A stretch of DNA of 20,000 nucleotides. Source: Psammoneis japonica. Taxonomy: Eukaryota. Shown one piece after another: positions 1 to 19,263 of the stretch. The stretch's first letter is position 1. Each line of letters opens with the position of its first letter. The translations under genes and the position numbers were made by a program. Location of the stretch: assembly GCA_008632985.1 (NCBI GenBank), contig QPGO01000054.1:238261-258260 (forward strand), given 5' to 3'. The notes under the pieces were generated by a model that did no database searches, had not been told where the DNA came from, and saw only the letters and a program-made list of their open reading frames with translations.

Positions 1-1693
1 TCTCACACTGACAAGAGGGAAAAAAGGAGTTGTTGACACCTGAGAGGTGCAGGCAGAGAGCAGTCAACAGTTTGGCAAGTCAACTGCCCAAAATGACGTT
101 CAAGGCATGCAGAGCTTGCACTGAAATTTGTGTTGAAATGCACACAAATAGAAGAAAGGCCAAATCACACCAAGTTGGTGGGGTGTCTCAAATTCAAACT
201 TCTGGGAGCAGCAACAATGGAAGATTCTTTGCCACACAAAGCAGAGAACTTGAACTGACATTTGGCAGAAGGGGGGTCATTGATGCTGGAGAGTTGTGAG
301 TGGAGTGCAGTCAACAGTTGGGCAAGTTGACCATCTAAGATTGCTCTCAGAGAATGCACGCAGAATTTGTGCTGAATCTTGTGCAGAAACTTTTGCAGAT
401 TTTGGAGAAAATCACAAAGAAAAATGACAAGCAACCAAGCCAAAAGAGCTTGAGGCTAATTGCTTTCTAACACTTTCCAACAATGCTCTGGATTGCCCAT
501 GATGATGAAACAAAGGCACATCCACAGAAGAAGCAGTTGGAAAGAGCAGGTGAGAGCCATCATTGCACCATCAGAGAAAGGCAACATCAGTGCGCCAGAA
601 ATCATGAAAAAAAAACATGGGATGTGTGGCAGAGAGATGATGGCAGAATTGTGACAAGACAAAAAATGGATGGACAAGAGCAGCAGCACCTGGCTGGAGA
701 TCATCTGGAACACTGGCCAAGGTGAGCCTTTGCTCTGGATTGTTGTGGTTTCATTTTGAGATGCAGCACCACACTGTTGGGCTGCACATGCACCCACCTC
801 TGGTTAAAAAAAAAAGATTGCCCCACAGTTGTGTTCATGTGTGAGCAACAACATGCGAGTTTTGTAAAAAGGGATCCCCCCCCTCCTGGTGTGTGCACCC
901 CTGCTGGGTCTGCTGTGTGCCCAATTCACACAACACCACACACACACCAATGTGTCTGCACAGCAGGGGGTCTCACATGTCTCACACATCTGGGGGAGAC
1001 AACTGTTCTGTCACAGAGTTGCCGCCCTGCTGTTTGATGCAAAGGCAAGCTGCAGTCATGACACTCACAAATGCAACACAAAATCAGCGAGATGGTGGTG
1101 GCAGCAGTGCAAAAAAAAATCAGAGGGTGGGGCAGCTTGGTGGTGTGTGCAGAGCAGGTCTCCCAACAAAACAGCATGCAGCCAGTGTTTGCAGGAGACT
1201 TGTTTGTGCAGCAGTTGTGAGAGCCCTGCAAAAGTCATCAAGAACACTGCTTGTCAGTGTGTCCAAATGTGGCATGACATGGTCAACAGTGCACTGAGAA
1301 ACCCAACATGACCATCCAATGAACCACTGTCCAATTGTTGTGTGACAAGCCTCTCATTCTGATTGACAATGCAGTTGTTGATTCACAAACAATCAAGTCC
1401 CACAGTGGGAGATGCTGTTTTTTGTTGTTCGTTGAGCACTGCATTGGATGCAACTTCAAACCACAACATCATGTGGTGTGAAATCATGCACCAGCTTCCT
1501 GTGTGGTTGTGATGTGTGTTTCTGTTTGGCAGTGAAGCCAACACACAAGAACCAAGTGTGGATCCAAGCTTGCACCTCAAGCAACCAGGAGGAGGTGGCC
1601 CAAACCAAACAAAGCAACCCGGAGGCAAGGATTCTCAATTTGCCAAAATCAAGTGATTTTGCCAAATCCAGCTGGCCATCCACCCTGGAGGAC

Positions 1694-3101
1694 TCTGGGC
1701 GGTGGTGGACACAGTTGGAGCATGCTGGACGGCAGGTGCATTTGGACAGAGTGCTGGATGGCAGGCACAGTTGGAGAACCCCAAATGGTGGGCACAGTTG
1801 GAGGATGCTGGACTTTGGGTGCCCAGTTGGAGAGAGTGCTGGGCTGCTGTTGGAGAATGCTGGATGGTGAGTGCAGCTTGAGAATGCTGGATGATGATGG
1901 GCAAAGTTGGAGGATTCTGTCTGCAGGGTGCTTGATGCTGGATGGTGGGTGCAGTTGGAGAGGATGATGGACAGCAGGTGCATTTGAAGGATGCTGGATG
2001 GCAGATGCAGCTGGAGGGTGCTGGGCACACTGAATGGTGGATGCAGCTGGAGGGCTCTGGGTGGCAGGCCCAGTTTGAGGACAAATGATTGCCATTTCAT
2101 CCATTGAGTTTTCAACATTGTTTTTTTTTTTGCTGAATGACCACTTGCATTTGCCAGTGGAAGCACATGCTCCCAACTTTCTTGATTCTCTGCGCTTGAG
2201 CNNNNNNNNNNNNNNNNNNNNNNNNNNTGCATCAATGCTGTTCTCTGATTTGTTCAAGGTCTGCCATGAAAAGCTCAAGCACAAATGTGATTGCAGGTTG
2301 CTTCTGCACACAAGTCAAGAGCTTGTGTGGTTGTTGATTGCCCAATCATGATGGGGAGGCCATGGATTTGTCTCAGGAGAAGGTGGGCCTGTGATCTCAC
2401 CGCAAATGGGCAAGCATGGATGGTCATCCAAATTCGGGAGAAAGCACCGACTAGAGTCATGCATCTGGTCTCAACCATGCACCATCTTGAACTTGTGCTT
2501 TAACGAATTCTGCCATGACAGGCGCAGTTGGGCAAAACTGAGCAAATGAAGTTGGAGCTGAGGCAAGTCAAAGCCGCTGGCACTCTTCTCTGGTCTGGGC
2601 GGTGGTGGACACAGTTGGAGCATGCTGGACGGCAGGTGCATTTGGACAGAGTGCTGGATGGCAGGCACAGTTGGAGAACCCCAAATGGTGGGCACAGTTG
2701 GAGGATGCTGGACTTTGGGTGCCCAGTTGGAGAGAGTGCTGGGCTGCTGTTGGAGAATGCTGGATGGTGAGTGCAGCTTGAGAATGCTGGATGATGATGG
2801 GCAAAGTTGGAGGATTCTGTCTGCAGGGTGCTTGATGCTGGATGGTGGGTGCAGTTGGAGAGGATGATGGACAGCAGGTGCATTTGAAGGATGCTGGATG
2901 GCAGATGCAGCTGGAGGGTGCTGGGCACACTGAATGGTGGATGCAGCTGGAGGGCTCTGGGTGGCAGGCCCAGTTTGAGGACAAATGATTGCCATTTCAT
3001 CCATTGAGTTTTCAACATTGTTTTTTTTTTTGCTGAATGACCACTTGCATTTGCCAGTGGAAGCACATGCTCCCAACTTTCTTGATTCTCTGCGCTTGAG
3101 C
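1694..3101 (+). repeat. Identical 508-bp direct duplication (1694-2201 = 2594-3101), each copy ending at an N gap
   Basis: Line-by-line identity at an offset of 900. A second, diverged duplicate pair lies at 2377-about 2592 and 3274-3503. Confidence 0.9.
1700..2080. repeat. Degenerate minisatellite, unit about 27-33 bp (consensus like CAGTTGGAGGATGCTGGATGGCAGGTG), second copy at 2600-2980
   Basis: CAGTTGGAG/CAGCTGGAG and ATGCTGGATG recur about every 30 bp. The minus strand reads as repeated PxSSxLQLx. Confidence 0.8.
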
Positions 3102-3503
3102 NNNNNNNNNNNNNNNNNNNNNNNNNNNNNNNNNNNNNNNNNNNNNNNNNNNNNNNNNNNNNNNNNNNNNNNNNNNNNNNNNNNNNNNNNNNNNNNNNNN
3201 NNNNNNNNNNNNNNNNNNNNNNNNNNNNNNNNNNNNNNNNNNNNNNNNNNNNNNNNNNNNNNNNNNNNNNNNNGAGAAGGTGGGCCTGTGATCTCACCGC
3301 AAATGGGCAAGCATGGATGGTCATCCAAATTCGGGAGAAAGCACCGACTAGAATCATGCATCTGGTCTCAACCATGCACCATCTTGAACTTGTGCTTTGA
3401 CGAATTCTGCCATGACAGGCGCAGTTGGGCACAATTGAGCAAATGAAGTTATGAAGTTGGAGCTGAGGCAAGTCAAAGTCAAAGCCGCAGGCACTCTTCT
3501 CTG

Positions 3504-3526
3504 CCCCCCCCCCCCCCCCCCCCCCG
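3504..3526. repeat. C23 homopolymer at the boundary between degenerate repeat and normal genic DNA
   Basis: 23 consecutive C; TpA and CpG return immediately downstream. Confidence 0.9.
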
Positions 3527-3669
3527 CGACCCGCCACATTCGAATACGATGGAAATACTGGCGCTTTGCTTTGGCTATAACATTACCTAGATGCTTAAGG
3601 GCTGAGTTTAGATTACGAAGTGCGCAAAAGCAGAATATACATCGGCTTAGGGATAACAGCAATGGGATC

Positions 3670-5247
3670 TCAACGAGAGCACGACCCTCCCGCTGTGTTT
3701 CTTCTCACTCGAGTTGGCGGAGATGTAGTGGCCTCGTGATAAGAAGATGTGGTGCGCATGCCCGGGAATACGCCAGAAGCCGTGGGCCGCACCAAAGCTC
3801 TTCCGCCCGTAATTCTCGACCCGTCAAATGTCTTGTACATGTTGACGACATTATCAGAAATTCCGTCTTCAGCGGTTGCCACAGCCACCACATCGCCGCA
3901 ACGAGAAAAGACCGTGACAGCCTTCTGAGTAAGCCTAAAGCTCCGTGAACTCGTCCTTCGCCGATCCAGATTTACAATGTTGACATAAAAGACGCCATTG
4001 CTCTGAGAGTTCGCGAGAAAGGTCCGTCCATCCGCTGAGAAACCCCATCCAGCACTGCCCCGGATATTTGAGAGATAAAACACTCGACGGTTCTCTTCGA
4101 GATCCCACACAACCACTGTTGTGGGGGAGACAAGCGAAGCTTGGGTAACCATGACAAAATATCGTCTATCCGGCCCGAACCCATACTTTCGTGTTCCTCG
4201 GGATAGAGTATGTCGGTAAATGCTTCGGCCATCGGACTGGCGAATAACGGCGAGGCGCGATCCTGTCACCTCAACACGGTATTGGTCGCCACCGCTGGTA
4301 ACTGGAGCAGTCGGCGGCCTCATAGGCCCAGTTTTGGAGCACTCACAATCCACGCCAGGTTTTGGAGCGTTCACGTCGTATTCCTCTCCCTCTGTTTCTT
4401 CTGGTGGAGAACCAGTACCGCCACTTCCTGGAAGACCAGCAATAGGAGCACCGCCTAATTGTGAAGACAAAGCGTTGTTACGGGATTCTGTGTGCGCTCT
4501 TGTTGTGCTCTCGAATTCATCCGAATCCAGAGACATGCACCAATTATAGTGCTCAAGATGGCTAACACTCCAATCGTGTCCACAATTTCTTCGCCGATTC
4601 GCGTACCCTTGTCGAACAGCAGTTTCAGCATAGGCATCGCAAACGCATCTCTGCAATGCTTGTTGTCGATATTTTTCGCCGTCTTGAGTTAGAAGAACAT
4701 GGCTTCCAAAGAGGCACCACGAGGAATGGTATGCAAATCTTGAGTCCCACTCTGGGCCTTGATATCCACATTCGTACTGGAGGTTCTTGTTATTTTGTGT
4801 CACGGCTTTGCGACTATAACCCTGGCATGCTTGTTCTTGAAAGGCACACAGTAAGAAATCGCTGTTTCGGCGGAGCTCTCCCTGTTGCATGGCGGCAAGA
4901 TTCTTGACTTGCATGCACCAGTCATAGTGTGTTGCCTTTTGCAAGCTCCACACGGGGCCTCCCAAATTTGATCCACACGGCAGGGCTTTCATTCGTCTCG
5001 ATACATCCACTGCCGAATTGGCGTAGTTTTCACAAGGCCTCACCCAGAGCTGGTCTTGGTTTGCATATGGGTTTTTATTGCAGTTGTCAGTCACGCACGG
5101 CAGCTGCAACAGGCGTCGGGATTGCTCCTTCGGTTTCGTATCAGCCGAATGCAACCTCTTCCTACTGATGCGAAGCTGGAAAACAAGGCACACCGCACAT
5201 AGCACGGCGACAACACGAAACATATCTTTTGAGAAGGATCGATTCAT
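3670..5247 (-). CDS. Secreted or signal-anchored protein with three Cys-rich repeats (CxxYxxxAVx...CG...W...HxxWC), a Gly/Pro/Glu linker and a C-terminal beta-rich (propeller-like) domain
   Basis: Long ORF, likely ATG at 5247 (MNRSFSKDMFRVVAVLCAVCLVFQLR, hydrophobic stretch). Repeats CENYANSAV..HYDWC, CQGYSRKAV..HSSWC and CDAYAETAV..HYNWC. YGFGPDRRYF, WGFSADGRTFL and VFSRCGDVVAV resemble propeller blades. Confidence 0.75.
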   Translation of the reverse strand: MNRSFSKDMFRVVAVLCAVCLVFQLRISRKRLHSADTKPKEQSRRLLQLPCVTDNCNKNPYANQDQLWVRPCENYANSAVDVSRRMKALPCGSNLGGPVWSLQKATHYDWCMQVKNLAAMQQGELRRNSDFLLCAFQEQACQGYSRKAVTQNNKNLQYECGYQGPEWDSRFAYHSSWCLFGSHVLLTQDGEKYRQQALQRCVCDAYAETAVRQGYANRRRNCGHDWSVSHLEHYNWCMSLDSDEFESTTRAHTESRNNALSSQLGGAPIAGLPGSGGTGSPPEETEGEEYDVNAPKPGVDCECSKTGPMRPPTAPVTSGGDQYRVEVTGSRLAVIRQSDGRSIYRHTLSRGTRKYGFGPDRRYFVMVTQASLVSPTTVVVWDLEENRRVFYLSNIRGSAGWGFSADGRTFLANSQSNGVFYVNIVNLDRRRTSSRSFRLTQKAVTVFSRCGDVVAVATAEDGISDNVVNMYKTFDGSRITGGRALVRPTASGVFPGMRTTSSYHEATTSPPTRVRRNTAGGSCSR

Positions 5248-5822
5248 GATTGCAGTTCTCGGACGAAGGCAAAAACGCTGAAGCGACAAGTATATACACG
5301 GAAAAGATTGTGCCTTCTGGTAGAGTGAATGTAGACTCTCGGTGATTATCCGCCTTAGCATTCAGTCGTGAGTCATGCTGCTTGTAAAAAAGGACCATTA
5401 CTTTGCAGCAATGCCACGAGTGAAAGAAACGGCGGGAACTACTCTCTCTAGCTAGAGAGCTAGTAGAGATTAGAGAGAGAGTAGAGTGTACCGTACCGCA
5501 CGGACGGCAGCACTTGATAGTCGGTGCCACGACTCAAAGAAAACGCGGTTGCGGGTCCGCGTTAGAATTTCTGTTTCGAACTGCGTGAATTCACAAAAGT
5601 CTCGGTTGGCGTCGCAACCATCGCATTTGGTCAAGAAGAAGCTCTACCCATAGGCCTGTGCTCTGCCGGTAGCTAGAGAGGGTATGCCATAAAGGCTCTC
5701 TCTACTAGAGCAGCAGACAGAGGAGGACAATGGCAGGCAAGGATGTGTCCCAAGGCTTTCTAAACAGTGGCAACGGGGTGGCGCTGCATGCAAATCTGTC
5801 TTAAAAGAAGTCGTCGCCTTTC

Positions 5823-8049
5823 CTAGCCTCTTGGTGGTGGCATGCCTTCAACAGTATTCCACGGTAGCAGGCTTCTCCACAGAACTTCGAGCATTGGTAG
5901 ATCGGGATCAATGACGTTTGTAGGTGGACCGCCAATTTGCAAGAGATTACCTCCAAATCGTGCCCCGGCTTGCTGTTCAAGTAGCTGTTCCCTCCGATTG
6001 TTCCAATCCTGCCGGAGAAATCTAAAGAATCAGTGTTGAAAACAAATGGATAAGACGCTCTTGCGTAGAAAGGGGGAGCGCAGAAACGCCGGGACCGACA
6101 GACGTACCTGTCGTTGGGAAGAACTTACCTGCGTCGATTCGGATCAATAGCTAGAGCTGGCCCAACCAAGTTTGGATCTAGCGGATTTGCATCTGGCGGA
6201 AGCGTCCTAAAACGGTCCTTGTAGTCGTCCGGGTCCACTTTTTTGTATCTGCAAAACGCGGTCTTGATCGAACCTGTTACTGGTGCTCCTAGATTGCAGC
6301 AGTTCTCATAGAGCCACAACAGAACCTTGTTGCTCGACCAAAGCTTGTGGTTTCGATCTACAAAGATTTGAATCATCAAGTCGCACGTGGTGCTGGCACT
6401 ACGGCAGAGGGTGGGGTCCAATTCTTCCTCTTGCGCTGTTGACATTCTGTTACGCAAGTCAACCAACACGGAGGGCCAGTCGGTCTGAAAGGATCGACCT
6501 GTCTTGTCTACTTCATTCTTGTCCAAGAGCATTTCCACAACTTTGGGGAACTTCTGTATCGCTGAGACAAGGGCTTCGCTGGCACGGTCCAATGACACTA
6601 CGTCTGGATCAGAAAGGTGCAAGCGGTGAAGCGCAAGCGCATACGAGTAGGACCAATTCGGCAGGTCTAGCAATTCGCATTGATATTGCTTTTCTGATGC
6701 TGGTTCACGGTAGTGAATTTGAATCTTTGACATTTATGAATATAGAGACAAACAGTAACTTTCGTTAGCAAATTCAGCCACGTGACATCACCCCGCACCC
6801 CACCCCTTCGCTACAATAACTTACCCGTTGACTCTCCACAAGGTCCACAACAAATTGATCGTGAGAGCTGGTCAAAGTGGCAAGTCCATAGTAGTCGAGA
6901 AGCAGCAGGACACCCATTGGGTCGCAAAGTGGATTGAGGGACAAGAGATATCGGGAAACTGCAAGACATGTTCGAATGCAACTTTGTGTGAAGACGTGAG
7001 AAATAAACAACATTAGTTCGTGCAATATATGAAACTTACCCGGCGACACCACTAACTTGAATCAGTCGAAACAATGCATGAAAGTATGACGCATTCTCCT
7101 TCAAATCGTAGTCCATAAAAAAGCTTTTCTTTGAGTCAAGTGGTGTAAAACCAGCCAAGGTTGAACATTCATACACCCACAGACATCGTTTCAGTACGGA
7201 GAGGCCCTCCTGACTCTGGCTCGTTTGGTACAAAACCATGCAGAGTTGAAGGAGTGCTTCCACCACAAAAGGGTGATGTGCTACATAAAGAGCTAAAGCA
7301 TTGACATCGCCGGTTTGTTGGATGCGCTCATAATCTGAAAAGTCTCGTTGATATGTATCTGAGCGAATAAAGGTAAACCATCGCGACAAGTCGACTTCGT
7401 CTTGACCGACGGTTCCTTCCATTGTATACGGCCACGGCAAGGTACGTGGTTCATCCTGATAACTCGTCATGCCCAAGCCTCCACCGATATAATGAGGGGG
7501 GCGCTGTTGTGCCCACTCGTCTCGGGGGGGTCCAAACAATAGTCTCGTTGCACGTCGTTGTGAACGGGATGGTGCACTGTCTTCTGTATCGTTTCCAAGC
7601 AGAGAGGTGCGCATGACATAGTCAATATCTAGATCTCTTGCATCCATACCATTTACAATCACTGCAAACCAAGACGGAATCGAAGGGTCATCCATGGGCG
7701 TAGCTGATGTATTTTTCTTGTCGTGTGTCGCAAACTCAGCAAGAAGGGCATCTAAGTCTTCTTGTTCCTGTGGTTCCTGTTCTTCTTTCGCTAAGGAATC
7801 AGATATTTTCTTCGGTTCTACTTCTGACTCCTGTATCAATTTTTCTGAAGAATCTTCTCCCTCCTCTTCACCGCCATCACCATCACTGACGTCCTCCTCT
7901 GACGAAGACTCTTCGTCTACCATGGCGAGAAAAGCAGCACGTTTTTGCCCCGTCACATTTTCTTCTTCCTCTTCTTCACTCTCGGACTCGAGTTGTCGCT
8001 CAGCAGCTTCTCGCTCCTCCCTCAAACGTCGAATAGCTCTTGAACTCAT
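5823..8049 (-). CDS. TCF25: TCF25/Rqc1 family ribosome quality-control protein; exons 7040-8049, 6825-6981, 6129-6724, 5823-6021
   Basis: N-terminus MSSRAIRRL followed by an acidic tract; HPFVVEALLQL; GCIRTCLAVSRYLLSLNPLCDPMGVLLLLDYYGL; C-terminal LWRSLLPWN. Three GTAAGT donors and AG acceptors join all exons in frame, ending at TAG 5823-5825. Confidence 0.9.
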
Positions 8050-8614
8050 CTTTACGATACTATCGTTTCTTGTTTCAATCAACAACAGCAATGTTCAATG
8101 TGAACGCGGTCCATCGCAGGTCCATCGTCCATCGTCCATTCATCCGGCCGGTGGACGGTGCGCGGCAGCGCGGATGCGCGACTCTGAAGAAATCGTAATG
8201 TTATATTGACTGTATCTATTGCCTTTATATTGCCCGTTAGTACATAACGCTTTACAATATTTAACGTCGTGTACTAAGACATAAAAAGCAACATTATAAG
8301 AAGGTCTTATAATCCATAAGTACGTTTAATCTTGTTTGCATCATTGTTAAATAAATTCTCCTTAAACGGGTTTGTCTTGAAGAATATATTTCTTTTAAAT
8401 AATTACATAATATCAATGTCACTCCATAAGAATGACAATTAGTCCGAATAGATTTTATGTTAAACGACAGTTTCTATCCAAGATCGATGGACTTTAAGTA
8501 CAAAGAAGGGGGGGATCACAAATCCTCGCTTCTCTCGCTTGCATTCATTTGAAAAGTTCATCACAGCGACTTCGCTCTTTGCTCTCATTCTGATTTTTGA
8601 AAAGAGGAGAAGCA

Positions 8615-10545
8615 ATGGTAATATTCAGCAATTGGGTGCAAGTGATTGCATCTGTTACTGCCTTTGCCTGGGTGCCAAGTGCCGCAGGAGTGAGTTTGTC
8701 TCGTGGTGTTTTCTTTGGTACCAGTTACCAGAGGATGCGAAAGATACACATTAATAGTACGCTGCTTTCACTAACTCTGCAATTTTTTCTCTACAACTCC
8801 CAAAAAAGGACAATTCGTATTCTGGTACCCTTACATGTGCCGGAGGATCTGCCGGCACCTATATCAAGGGAGAAGTGGGACACGGTGAAGCTGCATACTG
8901 GAGGGCGAGCCTTGTTGAAGGCGCTTACGCAAAGATTCGCTTTTCCAGCACATCCTGTGGCTTGCGTCCTCTCTTGTCTCTGCATTATGGAGCCGGCCAA
9001 GATCTGGAAGGACAGGAAGTCACCGAAGCGGTCCTGACAACTGGATATCCGAGTCGTTGTGATGGTACAATCACAGACCCAAGGCTGAATCTCGAGCAAG
9101 TTCCTTCGACGGGAGACTATAACATTACGGTGATTGGTGATGGCGATCCTCTCCCAGGAGGTGAACCTTATCAATACAAGATCAAAATCATATCATCCGA
9201 CAAAGACAGTGACGGCGAGGGCGATGCGTGCGATTTATGCCCAAACACGGATATGGATACAAATGTTATGGTTTTGGAACTAGATACGACTGTTCCGAAT
9301 CTGATGGTAGGCGAAGGGTGCTCATTGAATGATTTAATGCCATCTTTCCTTACAACTTGTGCGAGTGATGCCCTTGAGCAAGGTACTGAAGCAAACAGGA
9401 GCCGATTATTCCGGATTTGCATGGCAAACATCTTTAAGCAATACGAAGCTGATGGGCTCATATCTGCCGACGAGCGTCTACTGCTGATGAGGAACGGAGT
9501 GCGAATGATTGACGAGGTAATATTTGATACCGTTACAGGTGGTGAGGGAGGACCAGGTGGCGAGGGAGGACCAGGTGGTGACGCATTTTCATGCACGTGG
9601 GGTCCTAGCTCACAAGAAGAGTGCAAAGCATTGCTTTCGTCTCGACTCCCATATTCGCATGACGAAACCGAGACGCAGAACTCCAACAGGATTGGACATC
9701 GCTGGGTCTTCCTCGGCGACTCCACTACTGCTCGCATGATGCGAAATTCAGCATTGACAAACTATCTTTCACGTGACGCCACGCAGCGACTGCAACTCTC
9801 TTGTCCCGACAAGTACATTTGTGACCGCCGCAGTGTAGGTTCCAACTGCATGTTCAACGACGAGTTTGGATTTGAGTACAGACCTGATTTCGATTGGTTT
9901 CCACCCGACTACGACAACAATGCAGAGGGGCCAGTCGGATATACACCCTATTGTCTTGACTGTTCCGGGTGCATATCCAACTTTGTGATTTGCCAAGATG
10001 GCCAACCAGGTCAACCCTGCGAAAATCTCACTGTTCCAGTGACATACGGTGGATACTTTGCAGTGGAATTTGCGAGAGACGTGGAAATGCAAAGCCCAGA
10101 ATTTGACACCACTCAGGAGCACATCGCCGCCTTCATGAAACGTACCTTCAATTCAGATGCCAGCATCGTCGAGACTTTGGGGTATCCTGTTTGCGTCGTT
10201 AACGTCGGGACTCACGACGGGTTGATTCCAAATATCACGACGCCCGAATTCATCTCCAATGTGGAGTGGTACCTTGGTCTGCTCTCCCCACAATGTGAAC
10301 ACATTATTTACCATGGTGTTGTTGCCCCAGATGGAGATCGGTATCCGGGTCACTCTGACCGCATGTTTCTTTGGAACAACGAAGTAAGGGACTTGCTGAA
10401 AAGTAATCCTGAGTTTAGCAGCAAGTCCACTTATATTGATGTTTTTAACACATCGAAAAACGAAGAGCACGCGGACAAAATTCACATGGCCGCAGAATGG
10501 TACCAAGCCTTCGGAGGTTTCTTTCAGGAACTCATTGAAAATTGA
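8615..10545 (+). CDS. Secreted SGNH/GDS(L)-type hydrolase-like protein with a thrombospondin type-3-like Ca-binding motif; exons 8615-8689 and 8809-10545
   Basis: A 25-codon signal-peptide exon ends at GTGAGT; branch-like CTAAC; the acceptor at 8808 joins in frame to the 8875 ORF. Motifs DKDSDGEGDACDLCPNTD, (GGEGGP)2, WVFLGDSTT (block I), NVGTHD (block III) and DKIH (block V). Confidence 0.8.
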
Positions 10546-10939
10546 ATGTATGCGTCTATTTCATCCGTTTCTTCTGCAATGAGGTTTAATTCTATAAGCG
10601 TTGCTAAATACATACAGTACACTGCATCTCGAAGCAACAGATACCGATGGCTGTGAGCTATCCCAATCCGTAAAGTTGGTTGCCTGAGGAGAATCCTCAC
10701 ATCTAAGACTTTTTTTTTGAGGGTATTGAACTCAACATGTTGGTAGGATACACTTGGACACAGCCCAACAACGTGTCGGTGGGAAATCAAGGAGTGAAAT
10801 TCCAAGCGCTCAAACTTATCAAAACCGAAATCGCTTCTACCCTCTCTTACCCGGAGTCCGAACGCAGTTCACATAGGAATGATGCTACTATGTCCATTTC
10901 TCAATTCAGTTCTTTCGCATCTTGATTTGTTCTTCTCCC

Positions 10940-11180
10940 TTCTATCACGCATCATCTAGACTATGCCTCTGCTGCCTTCCTTTGCAAGAGCGGCGTTGGC
11001 TTCACCGCTCATACTCTGCAACTTCGTCTTTGTTCGTGCCTCCTTTCCCTCTCCCTCTAAAGCATCATCTGAGCCTCAGCTGACGTAACCCTACGGCGTC
11101 GGCTTCACCACTCATCCTTTCCACGTTCCTCCTTGTTCATGGTTCTTTATCTTCCTCTAAAGCATCATCTGGGCCTTCGT
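10940..11180 (-). repeat. Degenerate tandem repeat of about 100-105 bp (2.5-3 units) spanning the GPCR stop codon
   Basis: TCTAAAGCATCATCTG at about 11156 and about 11056; GCATCATCTAG at about 10949; CGGCGT(T/C)GGCTTCACC at about 10991 and about 11094. Confidence 0.75.
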
Positions 11181-12567
11181 TTGCTTCGACTGTAGTCGTG
11201 GTGTTGGCTTCTCTCTCCTCCTCTCCACCTTCATCCGTGTTTGCGCCTTCTGTGTCGTCAGTGGACGAATAGTTGCCATCCTCGTCCGGCCAAATGCTGT
11301 CTGCAAGTGAATTATAAAATTCATCAGACGAGAGGCTATCGCCGTTGCTCATTTCTCCCCGAGGAAGCGAGCCACTCTGTTCCTCGCCGTCACCATTCAT
11401 TACTTCCGACTCGGACTGTGGCGGTTTCGACCGTGACCGCCTGAGAGACGACAGGATGCCCCTGGAGCCTGAATTGGAAGCAAAGTTGTACATCCAACCT
11501 GATGACTCACTGTCACTTGGTTCTCCATCCCCATCCCTTGAACCGCAAGCCTGACAAGTCACAAATCGTTTGACTGCAAAATACAAATCTGGCTTGAGCA
11601 AGGAGAGTGCAGCCGATGTGGCTCCTTGCAAATGTGAGAGTGTCCCACCGACAAAGTGAACCCAACTGGGCATCCATGTCGCCAACATAAACAGTACAAT
11701 CATGTACGGCACCCACATGAGAATAAACACAGCTACAATGCGACCAAAGTATACAACTAACAAGCGGCGTTTGCCCGCCGGTGGTATCAAGCCATGTTTC
11801 CAGACAATGAAGCAAATGTACGTAATGTACAAAATCGGAATACCTCCAAACGCTGGGAAAAAGAAGAGCCAAAAGAAAATAGAAGATCTCCAATCTTGTT
11901 CAACCGGCAGAAAAGCTAAGCCACTTGTCGAAGCGACATAGTGAGGAAACTTGTTGCTCTCGATCAGCCCCAATGCTCCCAAAAATATTGTAAAGACGTA
12001 AATCGCAAGCGCTTGTTTTGTCACGAAACGTATCTTTGGAACTCTGTATCTGCATATTCTATCCGACCCTCTAAGCATTTTGTAGAGCTGCTGTGTAACT
12101 GCTGCGTTAAGCCACATGTTTGATCCAACGCCCCACACGATAAACATCATTTGAAAGTTGCACATGGACGCCACTTGGCTCTTGTTGATCGCATGAATCA
12201 TACAAACAATACCGCAAAGGATCGAATAGACTGCATCAGGAAACATAAGGTACAATAGGTAGACATTGAAGGCCCGCGTTCGTGTACACCGTGATGACAA
12301 GACTCCCAAAAAGATGATGAGGGTGAAGAGTCCAAAAAAGAGTGAAATTACGGCCCAGGCAGTCCAGTACTTCGTGAGAGCACCATCAGAGGGAGCCGCT
12401 AGCAAGTAGTCATAGCGAGTTGAATTCTTGTTCAGTTCCCAAGTCCTCAACTCTGCCGAGCCCTTATTGTCCGTCCGTGCCATTGTCTCTTGTGTGTCGT
12501 TTCTCTCGGTCTCGGCCTGGGTCACTTCTCGGTTGGATGGGAGGAAAAAACGGCGGGAAGGACATTC
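11137..12567 (-). pseudogene. 7-transmembrane GPCR-like gene, separated from its N-terminal codons (17415-17472) by the transposon; possibly a pseudogene
   Basis: Seven hydrophobic segments, FNVYLLYLMFPD after TM1, CNFQ, FILMWVPY in TM6, HLQG..SA...L.KPD in TM7, and an acidic Ser-rich tail. The reading frame is open up to the left TSD. An internal ATG (MARTD) could still be used. Confidence 0.7.
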
Positions 12568-12709
12568 TCATCTGCGAACGGACTGAAAATCTCTACCGTG
12601 TACTGACCGTCGTACGAAGATTTGTCAATCTCCAAATTTCCAAAAAACACAAAAATCATGACCTCGCCCATGGCGTATCAAACTTGGAAGCCTACCACTC
12701 TGTAACTAT
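12568..12709 (+). repeat. Left terminal inverted repeat (64 bp perfect + divergent spacer + 42-bp block)
   Basis: TCATCTGCGAACGGACTGAAAATCTCTACCGTGTACTGACCGTCGTACGAAGATTTGTCAATCT is the reverse complement of 17351-17414. Confidence 0.95.
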
Positions 12710-12803
12710 TAAGAACTGTCTCACAGTACGTTGCTGAGTCGTTATTGATACTACTAAGAATATACTGGTAGCTTCATTTTTGGATTTACGACCAAGTATT
12801 GTC

Positions 12804-14078
12804 ATGAGTAGAGCCATCAAAGTGACAGATGATTTGCAGGTCGAATTTTCGGTCCGACACTCAACTTCTCTCCAATCGAAGTTGTTGAAGCTCGATTTGA
12901 ACGATACCAAGTCGTTGTCGAAGGTTTATCCCGATATATCAAAGTTGGGGGCTACTGTGGCGCTTCCAAAGACAGTCATTGGATGCTCCAGCGACTTCAG
13001 AATCGTGGATCGGAAAATTATTGACTACATCACGCTCGGCAAACAGCATCGAGATTTCGAGAGGGAAAAACTCAAGAATGCACAGCGTTGGGAGAGAGAC
13101 GAATATAGGAAAAATGTAACGAGTTTGATGGAGCAAAAAGAACTTCTCCGAGCGAAAATGACTTCATTGAGCAATGCAGATACAGGCACGGTTACACGCA
13201 CGGATGCACGCTCGTCAATGCCTGAACGAGTGCACCATGCATGGTCTGTCACACCGCCACCCACCAATTCCAGTCGCCCATTGAGTAATAGAGCTCAACA
13301 AGATGCCACAGTTACAGAAGACTCAGTGGCAGCAGCCTCATCTACCGTTGACGAGGAAAGTGACGAGCCACAAATCGCAAAGTTTGTGCGTGATCTCAAC
13401 GAGGCTTTTTTTTTAGACGACGATCCCAGTCTGATCCAACTGCGCAGCCCACGTCCCTCTCGAGCTCACACAATGAATGAGAATGTCAGTCTTTTTTCCA
13501 GTGAGGAAAAGCAACGAGAGCTTGTTGGCAGTGAGGAAGAAGAGCAGCGGAAAAAGAAGCACAAAACTGGAACCAACTCACAGACAATTTGTCAACAAGT
13601 TGACAAAACATCGATGGGAGTGATGCATTCTTCGCTCAAGAGAGTGGCGAAGTGTGTTGGTGCAGTCCAGCATCCTGACCTGGTGGATCGACAACCCAGT
13701 GTCCATGTTGCATGTCTCGTGTTTAGCGAGTTGTGCCAAATGACTGCCGACGGCGGCCAACCCACGTGTGATCGCTCTCGAAAGCCATTTTCATGCATGC
13801 CAGCATCATCAAAGGAGGGAGCAAAGAAGTGCATGAGGGCGTGCGCCAATGCATTTCATTCTTCTGATCAAGAAGAGAGAGAAAAGCATGTTCTTGCTGC
13901 TCCGTTTGCAGGTGGCAAGCTGAAGGATCCCGTTCGAATCTCAGCACGGAAATTGCAAACTGCATTGGAAAGAACTGTTCCAAGTGCCAAGCGCCGAAAG
14001 CAAAGCCTCGCGCGTGCAGTGAGGTCCAGGCGGACGATGCATCGGACGAAGACTCATCAGACAAGGAGAGTTGATTGA
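12804..14078 (+). CDS. Transposon accessory ORF of unknown function (coiled-coil-like segment, low-complexity linker); 3' half hypermutated
   Basis: ATG at 12804 just inside the left TIR; about 424 open codons. Tyr occurs only in the N-terminal part. A possible late frameshift would give the alternative end DDASDEDSSDKES*. Confidence 0.6.
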   Translation: MSRAIKVTDDLQVEFSVRHSTSLQSKLLKLDLNDTKSLSKVYPDISKLGATVALPKTVIGCSSDFRIVDRKIIDYITLGKQHRDFEREKLKNAQRWERDEYRKNVTSLMEQKELLRAKMTSLSNADTGTVTRTDARSSMPERVHHAWSVTPPPTNSSRPLSNRAQQDATVTEDSVAAASSTVDEESDEPQIAKFVRDLNEAFFLDDDPSLIQLRSPRPSRAHTMNENVSLFSSEEKQRELVGSEEEEQRKKKHKTGTNSQTICQQVDKTSMGVMHSSLKRVAKCVGAVQHPDLVDRQPSVHVACLVFSELCQMTADGGQPTCDRSRKPFSCMPASSKEGAKKCMRACANAFHSSDQEEREKHVLAAPFAGGKLKDPVRISARKLQTALERTVPSAKRRKQSLARAVRSRRTMHRTKTHQTRRVD

Positions 14079-14123
14079 CCTTGACCAGTTGTGGCGAGCT
14101 TCATGAAACACACTCTGGGCAAT

Positions 14124-17100
14124 TTACGTGTGCCATTTTCTAGAAATGTGAGGCATGCCATTGCCAAAGCACCACGCTAAAAATTGTCGAGACCGCTGGC
14201 TCAGTCCCTGAGGAGAAAATGCGACAAGCCCCGCACAACATCCCTCGGATGTTTGTGTCAGCCTGACATTGTCGGCAAGGTCCACACCTTCAGATGAGCT
14301 GAACTGGATTGTCTTTTCACTGAAGTCCTTCCTTGCTGCAGTGCTCTTGAATGTGTGCAGATCATGCTTCAGCTCTTCTTGCAGACTGGGGAGAAACCCT
14401 TGGCTGCGGTTGCTTGCCCAGCTCTCTCGACTGGTCTCGATTGCAGCCACACGGTTGTGACTCCAGTTGGGATCCAGCTCCATGAGCTTCTTTCTAGCCT
14501 TGACAACAACACCAATCAAAAAGGTCTTGTTCTGCATGGCCACCTTCTTTTTGGTGCCATCTCCTGCAACTTTCCAAACTCTCTTCGATTTCTTGATGCT
14601 CTCACAGAACTCTTCGTCAATTTTCCCTTCCTTGTGGCACTCGTTGAGCTCCCCCTTGAGCTTTCCAATTTCTCCCACCGCATCCGCTGCCAAACAGACC
14701 CCCTTCTCCAACAGACAATTTTCATCAACAGACACAGAATGCTTCTTGTCAAGATCAAACTGAGCACTTTCCGCATTCTTCAGTGGATCTAGCACCAAAA
14801 GGTCAATGCCATCCTTTCCCTTGGGGAGCCACTTTCTCAATGAGTTTCTTTCTCGCCGGTGAGGCGCACCACCAGTCCGTGAAAAAATCAGCAATTGGCG
14901 ATGCGCATCCCGTGTGATGAGAAAGCACAACACACAAGGCCACAAGCTTCAAGGCCGACAGAAATGTTGCAATGGAGGCAGTTGCTTCAGCTGATTGTAG
15001 CAGCTGCATCACATGATAGAGACGGAGCCACGCCAGAATCAAAGTGGTCATTGGATGCTCTGCCGCTCGCTCAAGCATGTGGTCAATGACATCCACGGCA
15101 CTTGTCTCAATGGCTGCACCATCTTCGGTTGCCCTGCGTTTCTTCTCGACACACTTTCGTGTTGCAGAGAGGCAAATGGCATTCACCATTGCACTGGTCT
15201 CTCGTAGGACGGTCCCTGGATCACCAGGATTCAAGACCCAGTTTAGCTGGGCTTCTGATGTTCGCCACAACGACAAGATGTCAATCAAAAATGCGCCACC
15301 AAAAAGCTGCCCGACAGCTTTCCAGCAAGTCAGCATTGCATGGAAGCCCCCAAGAACAATTGTCAACCCCATGAGTTGGAATGATTCCTTTAAATGGCGC
15401 AGTTTGAACAAATTTGTGCACGGGTCACCGTCCCCACCAAACGCGACCGGAAAATCTTCATGAAGGGGTGCTGTGCCCTTCGACTCTTGCGCCTCTGCCC
15501 AATCAGAATCAAGCACTCGTTCGGAATTCTTGAGTGTTGCATTTTGCTTCTCCTCGCCCATGTCTGTGATGCTGTTGAGTGTGCTGTCCTTGCCAAAATC
15601 GGTGTCAAGTGGTGGCTGCATGGTTGCTTTGTTGATTGAAAGGAAAGTTGAGGTTTCTCCGGGAGCAGAGTTTTCACTTTCGTCGTCAACATCCCCGGCA
15701 TCCTGCCAATCAACTGTCATGGACGTCTCATCAAAGTAAAGTTTTGAATCAAAGTTTTCAATGACTGCCCGTGACATGACTTCATTCCAATGTGGAACGC
15801 CTGGCCAATCAAATTCCGCAGCATGCAACATGACGTGCGCGTCGTGCTCCCTTGGCCATTGTTGCTCTGATTCGCACTCCATCACGGACCAGATCGCCCC
15901 CAGCTGCATCGTTGCCAGGAGTTCCTTGTCAGATTGACAAATTCCTTTTATTCCATCACAGCCAGCAAAATCCTCGTGTTGCCGTTCCTCTTCCAAATCA
16001 TGCTCGGGCTCCCGGCTCAGCACCTCTCGGTCCGGGTTGCTTGGGTCGCAATGCAGTCCGTCTGCAGTGGCTTGCTCGTTGTCGCACAGCAGAGTCACTC
16101 ATTGCACAGTTTGAATGCATCTAACTTTGTTCTTTTTCCCACCTCAAACTTTGTGCCCACAGTTGTCTTGCTGGTCGGTGAGATGGTCGCACTTTGACGA
16201 TTTGGTAAAATCAAATCCTTCCAGAATCCTCTGGTCTGCGAGTTTCTTGTTCCCTCGCCTCACTGTTTGTTTTGTCGTCGCCAGACCGAAACCAGTGAGA
16301 AGAGATGAAACATTGTCAGGCACCGCTTGGGCAGCCAAATGTGAACCGAGCAGGGATTGAATGATGCCACTCGAATTCGAGCTGCTTGCACTCCGCACCA
16401 TGTCCGTCACCACAAACACGGTCTTGAAAAGTCGATTCCATCGCCGACTGCCCTCCAATGCCTCTCCCTTTTCTTCCTCCATTTCTTTTCTTGTTCTTCC
16501 ACACAAGAGACAGAACATAAAGTCATGTGGAAAACTGTCGTTGGACTTTGCAAGCTCTGCAAGCGCTCGCTCGGTGGGGTGCGCAGTCGGGTCGCATCGC
16601 CGCGCAGCAGCAGAGTCGTTGGCAATCATGATGGAATGAAGACGCTTCACCAACCTAAAGAAGTTCCTTTGATTTCCGTCACCCATTTCAGAAGGACTGT
16701 CTTTTGAGAAAATGACACTCTGTAGATCCAGTTTTCCATCTTCTTTCCATCCAACCAAAGAAAGCCCGACAAAATTTGTTTGGTCCTTGAGATTCGTCTG
16801 AAAGTGTCAGACCATGTCCTTTCTCTTACTTGGTTCGGCCATTTCATGATCAGATGTCTTTGATCTCGTCTTTACAACACCATCTTGCCGAGAGCAAGTC
16901 AGAGAACGGCACAGATGCTTGGAGCAAAGGGTGCTGCACTTGGGACAGGTAATTTGGTTGTGTCGTCCAAGACCGGTGCATGCTCCCGCAAAACATTCAA
17001 CACACAGTCGATGATTTTTCCTGCAGAGAATCGTAAAATATACGCTACCTCTCTCGGGTGTCCATCCATTGCACTTACAGCATTCAAAACCGGGTGTTTC

Positions 17101-17196
17101 CGTTGCCGTAGGCTCATCATGCCGACGACGCTTCACATTAGAGGATTTGTGTGATGATCTCAAAGATTGATGTTTTTGCCTTTCACGGCCACTCAT
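14124..17196 (-). pseudogene. Disrupted Academ/DUF6589-like DDE transposase with an N-terminal RING-type zinc finger
   Basis: ORFs 16807-17223, 16144-16758 and 14803-16098 share one frame, broken only by TGA at 16807, 16144 and 16099. RING-like CxxC..CxxxH..CxxC..CPxC; QDN motif; GGDGDP...LTIVLGGFHAMLTCWKAVGQLFGG. Frameshift or deletion near 14825 into the 14124-14945 frame. Confidence 0.75.
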
Positions 17197-17271
17197 TTCA
17201 AACCAGAAAAATTCAATAAGCACTATAGAGAGTGTTCCACGATACTACCAAGTTTCGAGTATCAGATCGTT

Positions 17272-17414
17272 ATAGTTACAGAGTGGTAGGCTTCCAAGTT
17301 TGACACGCCATGGTGGTGCGTCGTTTTTTGGTGTCAAAGTTGAATGTGGCAGATTGACAAATCTTCGTACGACGGTCAGTACACGGTAGAGATTTTCAGT
17401 CCGTTCGCAGATGA
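17272..17414 (-). repeat. Right terminal inverted repeat
   Basis: Reverse complement of 12568-12709, with the same two conserved blocks. Confidence 0.95.
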
Positions 17415-17472
17415 ATTCTGGTGTGCATAGCCCTACTTCCATCGTAAACATGATGTTGTGTAGCTTAGACAT
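17415..17472 (-). CDS. Orphaned N-terminal codons of the GPCR-like gene (MSKLHNIMFTMEVGLCTPE)
   Basis: Removing the element and one TSD joins this ATG-initiated frame in phase with the 11137-12567 ORF. Confidence 0.65.
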
Positions 17473-17662
17473 CAGGGAGGCTTCGGAGAAACCTAAAAAG
17501 ACTGATCAAAACGTATATAAAACAATGAAAAGGTTTATATACGCCCATTCAACGCAGCGAGAAAAAGCCGAAGGCCTTCCGCCCCAGCAACCCGATCGCC
17601 AATCGCCACCGCCAACACGATGACAAGACTGACGCAGCGGGCAATTAAAAGGCCTGAGCAAG

Positions 17663-19189
17663 ATGAACTTTGATTATGGGTTCACATACCTGCGTTCCAC
17701 AAATCAACTCATGCGTGTGATACGATACGTTCTCTTTACAATGCCAGTACTCTTTCCTCACGAACCGTCCTCAGTAGCGTACGGTCTGGGATCAGGGACC
17801 AAACCACCACAACGACTCGTTTTGGTCGGAGGTGGGCATGGGCATGTCCAGGTTATCAAGGCTTTCAATCGCAAGAGTCGACCAGCAAGATTGCAAGTCA
17901 CGCTAATTGATGTACAGAAATCTGCGTCCTACAGTGGAATGGTACCTGGTTGCGTCTCCAAAATGTACACACCTGACGAAACATTGCTTCATCTAGAGCC
18001 TTTGGCGGAATGGGCTGACATTGATTTCATCAACGACAAGGTAATTGATATGGATCTGGAACGCAAGACGCTTCGACTCGAACACACTCTTGAGCCTGTT
18101 CCTTTCGATGTAGTAAGCTTAGACATTGGGTCCGCATCAAGAGGATTGTACGAGACACCAGGTGCAAAACAATTCACGATTCCCACACGACCAATATCAG
18201 ACCTGATTCGCAGAATAGAAGAGGCTGAAGCGCAGCTTGTTAAACAGAAACCATCAGAAGTACGCGTGGTGGTCATTGGAGGTGGTGCAGCGGGAATTGA
18301 GCTATCGCTAAGTATGAAAGGACGATGGAATGACATTATTCCAGGAAAGGTTGACGTGACGCTATTGGATAGCGGAAGCGAATTGCTTCCTAATGAGTCT
18401 CTCGCTTGTCGCGAGAAACTCAAAGAAGTCATGGATGACAAGAACATTGATGTGCGACACCATTGCTATGTGGACCAAATCTGCAAGGACTCGGTTCTTC
18501 TTACGTCGGGAGAACGAATTCAATACACGCATTGCTTATGGGCAACCGGAGCTGGGGCTCATTCTGTCGCGCATCAACTGGGGAAGCGAGGACTCTCAAT
18601 TGATAAGAGAGGATGGATTCGAGTGAACGAGAATTTACAGAGCTTCTCACATCCTTTTGTATTTGCTGCTGGTGATTGCGCTTCAATTGAGGTTCCAGCC
18701 AAACAAGGACCTCCACCCAAGGCGGGTGTCTACGCGGTACGTGCTGGGCCGGTGTTGATTGACAACCTGACAAACTATCTTGAACGGCAGCCACTGGTCC
18801 CGTACAAGCCTCAAGACGACTTTCTAAAACTCATGGTCGTTGGCGACGGCACTGTCCTGGGATTTCGGTTTGGGATCCCAATTCACGGGAAATGGGTATG
18901 GCAGATGAAAGACGCAATCGACCAGCATTTCATGTCTTTGTTCAAACGAGAAAACCTGCCCAACCTAGAGGATGGAGCGCACCTTGTTTCTTCGCAGTAT
19001 GACGCTGAATTTTTCAAGCAACAGGCAGATCCTCTAGATCCTGATGAAGCTGCTCTCTTGTTGCAAAGATCGGATGATGACGTAGACTTCCAGGTCGCCT
19101 GGAAGGTCTTGCGTGACATGACCCAGGACGAAACGTACAGAAACAGGGTGCTGCAAAGACTGGAGGTACCAATGTTAGTTGAAACATGA
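17663..19189 (+). CDS. FAD-dependent pyridine nucleotide-disulfide oxidoreductase of the type found N-terminal to selenide water dikinase (SelD), here stand-alone
   Basis: LVLVGGGHGH, YSGMVPG, FDVVSLDIGS, VIGGGAAGIEL, VFAAGDCA, PKAGVYAVRAGP and WQMKDAIDQHFM. No SelD kinase domain follows. The true start may be ATG 17711 or 17741. Confidence 0.85.
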   Translation: MNFDYGFTYLRSTNQLMRVIRYVLFTMPVLFPHEPSSVAYGLGSGTKPPQRLVLVGGGHGHVQVIKAFNRKSRPARLQVTLIDVQKSASYSGMVPGCVSKMYTPDETLLHLEPLAEWADIDFINDKVIDMDLERKTLRLEHTLEPVPFDVVSLDIGSASRGLYETPGAKQFTIPTRPISDLIRRIEEAEAQLVKQKPSEVRVVVIGGGAAGIELSLSMKGRWNDIIPGKVDVTLLDSGSELLPNESLACREKLKEVMDDKNIDVRHHCYVDQICKDSVLLTSGERIQYTHCLWATGAGAHSVAHQLGKRGLSIDKRGWIRVNENLQSFSHPFVFAAGDCASIEVPAKQGPPPKAGVYAVRAGPVLIDNLTNYLERQPLVPYKPQDDFLKLMVVGDGTVLGFRFGIPIHGKWVWQMKDAIDQHFMSLFKRENLPNLEDGAHLVSSQYDAEFFKQQADPLDPDEAALLLQRSDDDVDFQVAWKVLRDMTQDETYRNRVLQRLEVPMLVET

Positions 19190-19263
19190 TTTAAAATGGA
19201 CGACACTCGACGGTTTTTTTTTTTTTTTTCGGGGAAGAGAATGAAGCCGAACAACTTGCTCGG

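Follow-up and report, generated by a model that had tools for sequence, protein, structure and literature searches.

Hypermutation directed at TpA has been described in the rhizarian Bigelowiella natans, in whose mutation-accumulation lines A>G and T>C changes arise de novo at TpA only, within bounded regions, the targets being integrated giant-virus and virophage DNA (Mettrop et al., 10.64898/2026.01.13.699255). According to the same preprint, genes of B. natans that are poor in TpA are enriched for domains of the transposable element (TE) type, and an ADAT2-like DNA adenine deaminase has been proposed as the enzyme (10.64898/2026.01.13.699255). In repeat-induced point mutation (RIP), as described for Neurospora and other ascomycetes, C is changed to T, mainly at CpA (PMC2621366, PMC7296669). 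A diatom is reported to have DNMT5a-dependent methylation, and young TEs are de-repressed without it (Hoguin et al. 2023, PMC9998398). Our literature search returned no description of TpA hypermutation in diatoms. Here we compare these systems with a locus of the diatom Psammoneis japonica, a stretch of 20,000 nucleotides (nt) from assembly GCA_008632985.1 (contig QPGO01000054.1, forward strand, 238,261 to 258,260; hereafter the window, in whose own numbering all positions are given). It holds two tracts almost devoid of TpA: repeat-rich tract A at its left end, and tract B, the core of a DNA transposon. We propose, with a probability of about 0.65, that tract A is old, silent, tandem-repeat-rich diatom DNA that was brought to a TG/CA end state by two transition processes acting in one territory. 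The features on which the argument turns are the following.

1 to 3503, no strand assigned: tract A, rich in repeats and almost cleared of TpA as well as CpG.
3504 to 3525, plus strand: C22 homopolymer at the composition switch, a putative junction.
12568 to 17414, no strand assigned: terminal inverted repeat (TIR) DNA transposon of 4847 bp, with the target-site duplication (TSD) ATTC at 12564-12567 and 17415-17418.
13415 to 17033, no strand assigned: tract B, the TpA-erased transposon core with partial CpG loss.

Apart from two N gaps (2202-2227 and 3102-3273), tract A consists of 3305 called bases. These contain only 10 TpA (observed/expected, o/e, 0.05) and 26 CpG (o/e 0.13), and both TpG (416, o/e 1.82) and CpA (349, o/e 1.93) are nearly doubled. 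The host reference, 11.6 kb of the window outside tract A and the transposon, has o/e values of 0.59 for TpA, 0.93 for CpG, 1.16 for TpG and 1.18 for CpA. The 2620 nt that remain once internal duplicates are removed hold 8 TpA and 18 CpG, with TpG at o/e 1.87 and CpA at 1.90. Every 250-nt bin of tract A is poor in both TpA and CpG, against a TpA o/e of about 0.4-0.9 in host bins. The sequence-only reading, an earlier note on this DNA, had described 867-2451 as free of TpA and 1-3503 as low in CpG and saturated with TG and CA. Both descriptions hold: no TpA occurs between the TA at 865 and the TA at 2452, a run of 1587 nt (26 N included) that has a chance of about 2e-28 at the background TpA frequency. 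By our estimate, about 92% of the TpA and about 85% of the CpG of tract A are gone; at such a loss, TpA is at its floor. A patch at 2391-2600 (copy at 3288-3503) is richer in CpG (o/e 0.44, compared with 0.09 for 1-2201) and includes 2 of the few TpA that are left, so that the state of tract A is not uniform.

The right edge of tract A is sharp. Composition flips at the C22 run, the next 250-nt bin has a TpA o/e of 1.08 and a CpG o/e of 0.87, and a change-point fit places the edge at 3416-3545. To the left, the tract continues beyond the window: a contig from X1, a public DNA run that is probably from the same sample and whose contigs were assembled independently of the window, matches 1-1723 with 0 other letters and carries tract A at least 363 nt to the left of position 1.

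Within the transposon the same signature appears with a partial loss of CpG. Its core (13450-17020) retains 21 TpA (o/e 0.09) and 152 CpG (o/e 0.69), whereas its own ends are at 0.59 for TpA and 1.10 for CpG. Change-point fits put the edges of tract B at 13315-13474 and 16815-17034, so that tract edges are resolved to about 130-220 nt. The outer 64 nt of the two TIRs (12568-12631 and 17351-17414) are identical, and both ends of the element are bridged to host DNA by X1 contigs (3538-12595 and 17385-19229). X1 depth over the transposon is 150-270, compared with 57 for single-copy DNA, which corresponds to 3-5 copies. The sequence-only reading had called this an Academ-like element that lost TpA and kept most CpG, and its account of the composition is right in substance. 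The family label is tentative: TSDs of AcademX elements are given as 3 or 4 bp (PMC10045372), and the ATTC that flanks the transposon on both sides agrees with this, but the 4-bp TSD is the only feature that fits and the superfamily assignment is not secure.

The repeats of tract A record how the missing dinucleotides were lost.

7 to 420, no strand assigned: two diverged tandem units of about 247 nt, found by local alignment and by an X1 joint going back 226.
1694 to 2072, no strand assigned: minisatellite with a period of 27-29 nt, from rows of Tandem Repeats Finder.
1694 to 3503, no strand assigned: about two copies of a 900-nt tandem unit, broken by the N gaps.

A transition turns one pyrimidine-purine (YR) step into another, and as only transitions are concerned here, the number of such steps should stay constant. 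It does: as a fraction, YR steps amount to 0.243 (tract A), 0.230 (tract B), 0.239 (host DNA) and 0.248 (transposon ends). In tract A, the TA+CG deficit of 0.082 is matched by a TG+CA excess of 0.086. The tract has the YR total of the host, which means that its TA and CG were rewritten where they stood. For CpG this is also the hallmark of methyl-CpG decay, in which the deficit is offset by an excess of TpG and CpA.

Comparison between repeat units leads to the same result. The two 247-nt units align with a score of 86 (shuffles 22.9 +/- 3.3, maximum 42 in 300), and they differ by 8 paired TG<->CA flips; 5000 column shuffles gave a mean expectation of 0.98 and a maximum of 6, none reaching 8. 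In the alignment of minisatellite units, YR columns are split in a similar manner (TG 6/CA 5; TG 8/CA 3; TG 9/CG 1/CA 1). A TG<->CA flip needs two substitutions unless both forms came from one TA or CG, so the repeats were there first and were mutated later, unit by unit and on either strand. The 900-nt copies are closely similar (1694-1993 is 100% identical to 2594-2893, and 2377-2553 is 98% like 3274-3450); their tails show 5 substitutions, one of them TA/TG. An X1 contig (1694-2623) spans the first N gap and closes the 900-nt unit; its depth is 100, single-copy DNA being at 57. The YR balance and the flips thus uphold the sequence-only claim that losses of TpA and CpG both converge on TpG/CpA.

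Direction and coding effects can be read from the transposon's two open reading frames (ORFs).

14803 to 17244, minus strand: transposase-like frame of 814 codons with 3 in-frame TGA, its start RING-like and the remainder distantly like DUF6589.
12738 to 14078, plus strand: second transposon ORF, crossing the edge of tract B; no family found.

The 814-codon frame is a pseudogene. An exhaustive HMMER search placed it in a family of proteins of about 600-1200 residues, with 195 matches at E<=1e-3 and a top identity of about 31-35%. Six columns have a Tyr majority in the homologues compared (up to 150); the residues of the window there are C, H, C, C, Q and M, with no Tyr. Tyr became Cys or His at 4 of the 6, with codons TGC (three Cys) and CAT (one His). 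Control columns are mostly retained (F 5/7, W 4/5, L 17/27). Across three ORFs of tract B only 2 Tyr occur in 925 residues, compared with 14-26 in each host ORF, and ORF 12738-14078 has its 3 Tyr confined to the first 225 codons, which are unmutated. The three in-frame stops are all TGA, at columns where the homologues have R in 4/9, R in 9/25 and L in 7/16; two of the three are thus at columns where Arg is commonest, as expected from CGA>TGA. Counted over all six frames, the stops are TGA in 96 of 106 cases in tract A (TAA and TAG together 10), in 160 of 190 in tract B and in 312 of 626 in host DNA. Since TpA>TpG/CpA is unable to make a stop, frames stay open and inactivation is by missense.

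The copies of the transposon differ among themselves at the same kinds of sites. Between the window and X1, 149 of 160 differing places are transitions and 11 are transversions. Among the 40 best-supported of 161 difference rows, 34 fall in the transposon and represent 26 events. Of these listed events, 23 are at TA- or CG-derived sites, 14 being TA-type: 8 TG<->CA doubles, 3 sites where the window has TA and the other copy TG, and 3 where the window has TG or CA and the other copy TA. Nine are CpG-type, the window carrying the TG/CA form and the other copy CG in 8 of them, and the remaining 3 are other transitions. TpA erasure is ongoing and copy-specific.

The two losses proceed at different rates. 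With host DNA or the transposon's own ends as the reference, 85-87% of the TpA and 19-37% of the CpG of tract B are gone; on a log-survival scale, the per-site loss ratio is 4.0-9.0, depending on the reference. When the window is cut into 80 bins of 250 nt, none of the 51 TpA-normal bins is CpG-low, and 6 TpA-low bins have normal CpG. The presence of this class, with no bins of the reverse kind, means that the two losses are separable, and CpG loss is nested within TpA-erased territory. In the young core of tract B, CpG is down to 0.69 and in the element's own ends it is not (1.10), so the losses are concurrent and share a territory. The sequence-only reading had TpA lost fast and first, with CpG decay accumulating later. 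A fast TpA loss and a CpG loss that is 4-9x slower survive from this account; successive stages do not, with CpG already 19-37% down in tract B. It had also placed the two segments at different ages of one trajectory. Our data support tract A as the older, several-fold so on the CpG scale, and transversions agree (18 in 157 aligned columns between the 247-nt units, compared with 11 among all 160 differing places of X1), an ordering that extends to two tracts.

Both strands are about equally affected (TG:CA 310:345 in tract B), and the order of TG and CA shows no strand-coordinated clustering: a runs test gave z = +0.43 for tract B, -1.91 for positions 1-1690 of tract A, and two values of -0.07 and -0.58 for host DNA. 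Flanking bases do matter. Of 29 surviving TpA, none is in an RTAY context, compared with 159 of 465 in the background (p = 1.4e-5), and 15 are in YTAR contexts, compared with 81 of 465 (p = 5.7e-5). From these flanks we derive an approximately threefold preference for T-A-pyrimidine or, equivalently, purine-T-A.

We propose the following account, in which two processes run side by side. The first process would be a tract-wise, TpA-specific A:T>G:C hypermutation, giving TpA>TpG when it acts on one strand and TpA>CpA on the other. It would affect both strands about equally, favor TA followed by a pyrimidine about threefold and create no stop. The second process would be a CpG>TpG/CpA decay, 4-9x slower, for which the simplest source might be deamination of methylated cytosine in silenced chromatin; because DNMT5a methylation of TEs is known in a diatom, methyl-CpG decay is the simplest source of CpG loss, and a putative one at this locus. 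TG/CA would be the sink of both processes, so that TA and CG would disappear at a constant YR sum. Tract B, the core of the transposon (about 13415-17033), would be a product of the same process at an earlier time on the CpG clock. More tentatively, and with somewhat less than even odds in our estimation, the agent could be a chromatin-targeted editing system of diatoms, probably ADAT/TadA-like and with a T-A-pyrimidine target, that converts TpA to TpG/CpA in silenced mobile and satellite tracts, leaving no stops, with slower methyl-CpG decay in addition. The data themselves show the direction of the changes and their site specificity, conversion in place, the relative rates, and CpG loss nested in TpA loss. 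As the enzyme, an ADAT/TadA-like DNA adenine deaminase is a candidate by analogy with B. natans, and a connection with methylation or heterochromatin, or a role in defense, may exist.

Several points weigh against the proposed reading of tract A. No ancestor of tract A was recovered. Local alignment of tract A with the rest of the window in purine/pyrimidine code gave no signal (scores 27 and 26; 6 shuffles 26-32), and Pfam had no match below E = 0.09 for 15 ORFs of tract A, which may never have been coding. In the absence of an ancestor, the division of its TG/CA into TA-derived and CG-derived parts comes from mass balance alone. A stricter mass-balance test, in which pooled YR flank classes were compared with the host, did not reproduce the host distribution (r = 0.01 in tract A and 0.54 in tract B) and was uninformative. 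No contig of X1 or of a second run, X2, is shown across 3504-3525 in a comparison in which 3468-3537 was masked, and the join between tract A and the host genes is putative. Confinement of CpG loss to tracts of TpA loss fits one enzyme with two activities equally well. The copy comparison draws on the 40 best-supported of the 161 difference rows only, and tract ages and their ordering rest on n=2 tracts in one window. Finally, the long X1 transposon contigs differ from the window by 4 letters in 317 nt, 3 in 355 nt and 8 in 453 nt (98-99% identity); most TA conversions are therefore common to the copies, and the core was erased before the last duplication. It follows that the intact TSD and TIRs neither date the TpA loss nor show its absolute speed.

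The alternative that survives best is a single deaminase or pathway recruited to the tracts, which would act on adenine in TpA efficiently and on cytosine in CpG less so, with no need for 5-methylcytosine. It accommodates the restriction of CpG loss to TpA-erased DNA (CpG-low in 0/51 TpA-normal bins) and, within one transposon, the contrast between a CpG o/e of 0.69 in the erased core and 1.10 in the untouched ends. Furthermore, the B. natans preprint cites ADAT2 enzymes with deaminase activity on A as well as on C in DNA (10.64898/2026.01.13.699255). The 6 TpA-low bins with normal CpG speak for two processes, and the target geometry is unlike, with a 5' T before A in one case and a 3' G after C in the other. 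TpA was the site of 230 of the 231 hypermutations in B. natans, and CpG goes unmentioned in the main text of the preprint (10.64898/2026.01.13.699255). We consider a single process unlikely.

Tract A might instead not be adjacent to the host genes at all, either because of a mis-join at C22 or because it is foreign DNA with a composition of its own. The switch lies exactly at a homopolymer, the tract contains two N gaps and a duplicated block, and no X1 or X2 contig is shown across 3504-3525. On the other hand, the X1 contigs of tract A have depths (72 and 100) near that of single-copy host DNA (57), its YR total is the host's, and the same signature is found within a transposon that is bridged to host DNA at both ends. 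A mis-join would alter adjacency only and not the nature of tract A. This explanation appears to us quite improbable.

Chemistry directed at thymine could mimic the pattern as well. If T in TpA were oxidized or otherwise modified by a TET/JBP-type activity, the resulting T>C change would read as A>G on the other strand; 5-hydroxymethyluracil and 5-formyluracil mispair with G. TpA is self-complementary, so that T>C in R-T-A and A>G in T-A-Y are the same by sequence, flank preference included. The strand-coordinated runs that are missing from tract B (z = +0.43) also sit well with this idea. We have no evidence here for such bases in the host, and the only studied analogue proposes adenine deamination (10.64898/2026.01.13.699255), which makes thymine-directed chemistry more improbable still.

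A native composition, in which a satellite was amplified from a unit that by chance lacked TA and CG, with no hypermutation, has very little to recommend it beyond the fact that much of tract A is tandem (247-nt, 27-29 nt and 900-nt units): TG<->CA flips between homologous units are changes made after amplification, the non-tandem part at about 500-1690 is erased to the same degree, and traces are left in a CG/TG/CA column and in a TA/TG difference from one unit copy to another. We rejected GC-biased gene conversion, which would neither be TpA-specific nor coexist with CpG>TpG; a bisulfite-type artefact, as C content is normal; and RNA editing of a retro-intermediate, as the affected DNA is a TIR DNA transposon and a tandem-repeat relic.

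Further observations concern the transposon and the tract edges. A word-based protein search with the transposon ORF gave no matches, unlike the exhaustive HMMER search, and tblastn followed the 814-codon frame as a single frame from 17196 to 14830, its C-terminal part going on in another frame. Pfam assigned no family to the transposon ORFs even at E = 10, and no XPG was seen; 41 of 42 homologues of the frame also had none, the exception being DUF6589 at 21 bits, below the cut-off. A PDB profile search gave RING-like N-terminal matches only (best E = 6e-4). Leads from the Atlas for the transposase-like protein were DUF6589 and, by structure, weakly ISKra4-like transposases. In X1 contigs the left end of the transposon is linked to its right end with a change of strand (12634/17288 and 12869/17307), and loose ends at 12873 and 12907 are common to X1 and X2; both observations hint at deletion derivatives or fold-back variants of the transposon at other genomic sites. 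Homopolymers stand at two tract edges, C22 at the right edge of tract A and T9 (about 13405-13413) directly before the left edge of the transposon tract, which may be coincidence.

The host DNA of the window carries genes. Run X2 is labelled 'DNA?', and no listed run is on record as RNA. An X2 contig skips 6022-6128, 6725-6824 and 6982-7039, segments with GT..AG ends on the minus strand that are introns of a Tcf25-like gene. Since it skips three introns, X2 behaves like cDNA. This contig continues through a 563-codon ORF (3670-5361) to 3593. No X2 cover is shown on tract A or on 13341-17342, which is not evidence of silence. An AT-rich island at 8001-8500 (GC 0.38, CpG o/e 1.62, TpA 0.94) separates the Tcf25-like gene from the divergent ORF 8758-10545 and is likely their shared promoter region. 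Beside a G-protein-coupled receptor-like ORF lies a 103-nt tandem repeat in DNA of normal composition (10991-11176; 1.8 copies, 79% match). A neighboring oxidoreductase has a best homologue identity of 63%; its homologues number at least 120, and the 8 organism names fully legible among them all belong to diatoms, in keeping with a diatom host. Rfam and tRNA scans of the window gave no matches.

Nuclear A:T>G:C hypermutation directed at TpA is so far known from one 2026 preprint on an unrelated alga. Saturated TpA erasure in a diatom widens the phenomenon to a major phytoplankton group and suggests a genome-defense or heterochromatin-linked editing with a chemistry opposite to that of RIP. If the proposed system is real, the ratio of TpA to CpG loss would serve as a two-speed clock for dating silencing, and, with its counterpart in a rhizarian, the system would be either ancient or recurrent among the Stramenopiles-Alveolata-Rhizaria (SAR) lineages. 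Frames that stay open after Tyr -> Cys/His missense will mislead gene finders and repeat annotation. Such relics should be traced and dated by purine/pyrimidine coding and transversion-only distances, which the transitions of both processes leave unaffected.

Among the known systems, that of B. natans is the most similar, with TpA>TpG/CpA on either strand in sharply bounded, non-host-like DNA (10.64898/2026.01.13.699255). In the window too, changes center on TpA, with 9 CpG-type events in addition that B. natans lacks, and bounded mobile DNA is affected while its neighbors are spared, the ends of the transposon among them in the window copy. The hosts differ, rhizarian there and diatom here. 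The rate in B. natans was measured and is episodic, raised about 1000-fold, whereas the window offers fixed copy differences; TpA is about halved there (Rho 0.45), compared with an o/e of 0.05-0.09 here, in a transposon and tandem repeats (10.64898/2026.01.13.699255). The main text of the preprint does not mention CpG, flanking context or trinucleotides (10.64898/2026.01.13.699255). To this picture the window adds CpG decay that is nested in TpA-erased territory and 4-9x slower, the TA-pyrimidine preference, and missense inactivation with open frames.

Methyl-CpG decay shares with the tracts a CpG deficit and a matching TpG/CpA excess in silent repeats, but the loss of TpA is beyond its reach. 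Hyper-editing by deaminases (ADAR on dsRNA, APOBEC on viral and retroelement DNA, ADAT2/TadA) is likewise recognized by clustered transitions with a neighbor preference, and the B. natans preprint states that ADAR and the tRNA position-34 deaminases typically have a U or T 5' of the A that they edit (10.64898/2026.01.13.699255). The tracts are unlike such editing in that their changes are fixed in the genome, in tandem repeats and a DNA transposon for which no RNA intermediate is involved, the strands being equal and coordinated runs absent. RIP and the pattern described here are both dinucleotide-specific transition hypermutations that inactivate mobile DNA and leave a compositional scar. RIP generates TpA and stop codons. 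In the tracts the chemistry runs in the opposite direction: TpA is destroyed (o/e 0.05-0.09), TpG and CpA are enriched where C>T at CpA (G>A at TpG) would raise TpA and stops, and no stop can be created. The extent of the change also differs from RIP, which follows the duplicated sequence. By contig depth, a crude measure of copy number, the transposon ends (170-273) are repeated at least as much as the core (149-198), and in the window copy they are unmutated, so that repeat length alone does not set the tract.

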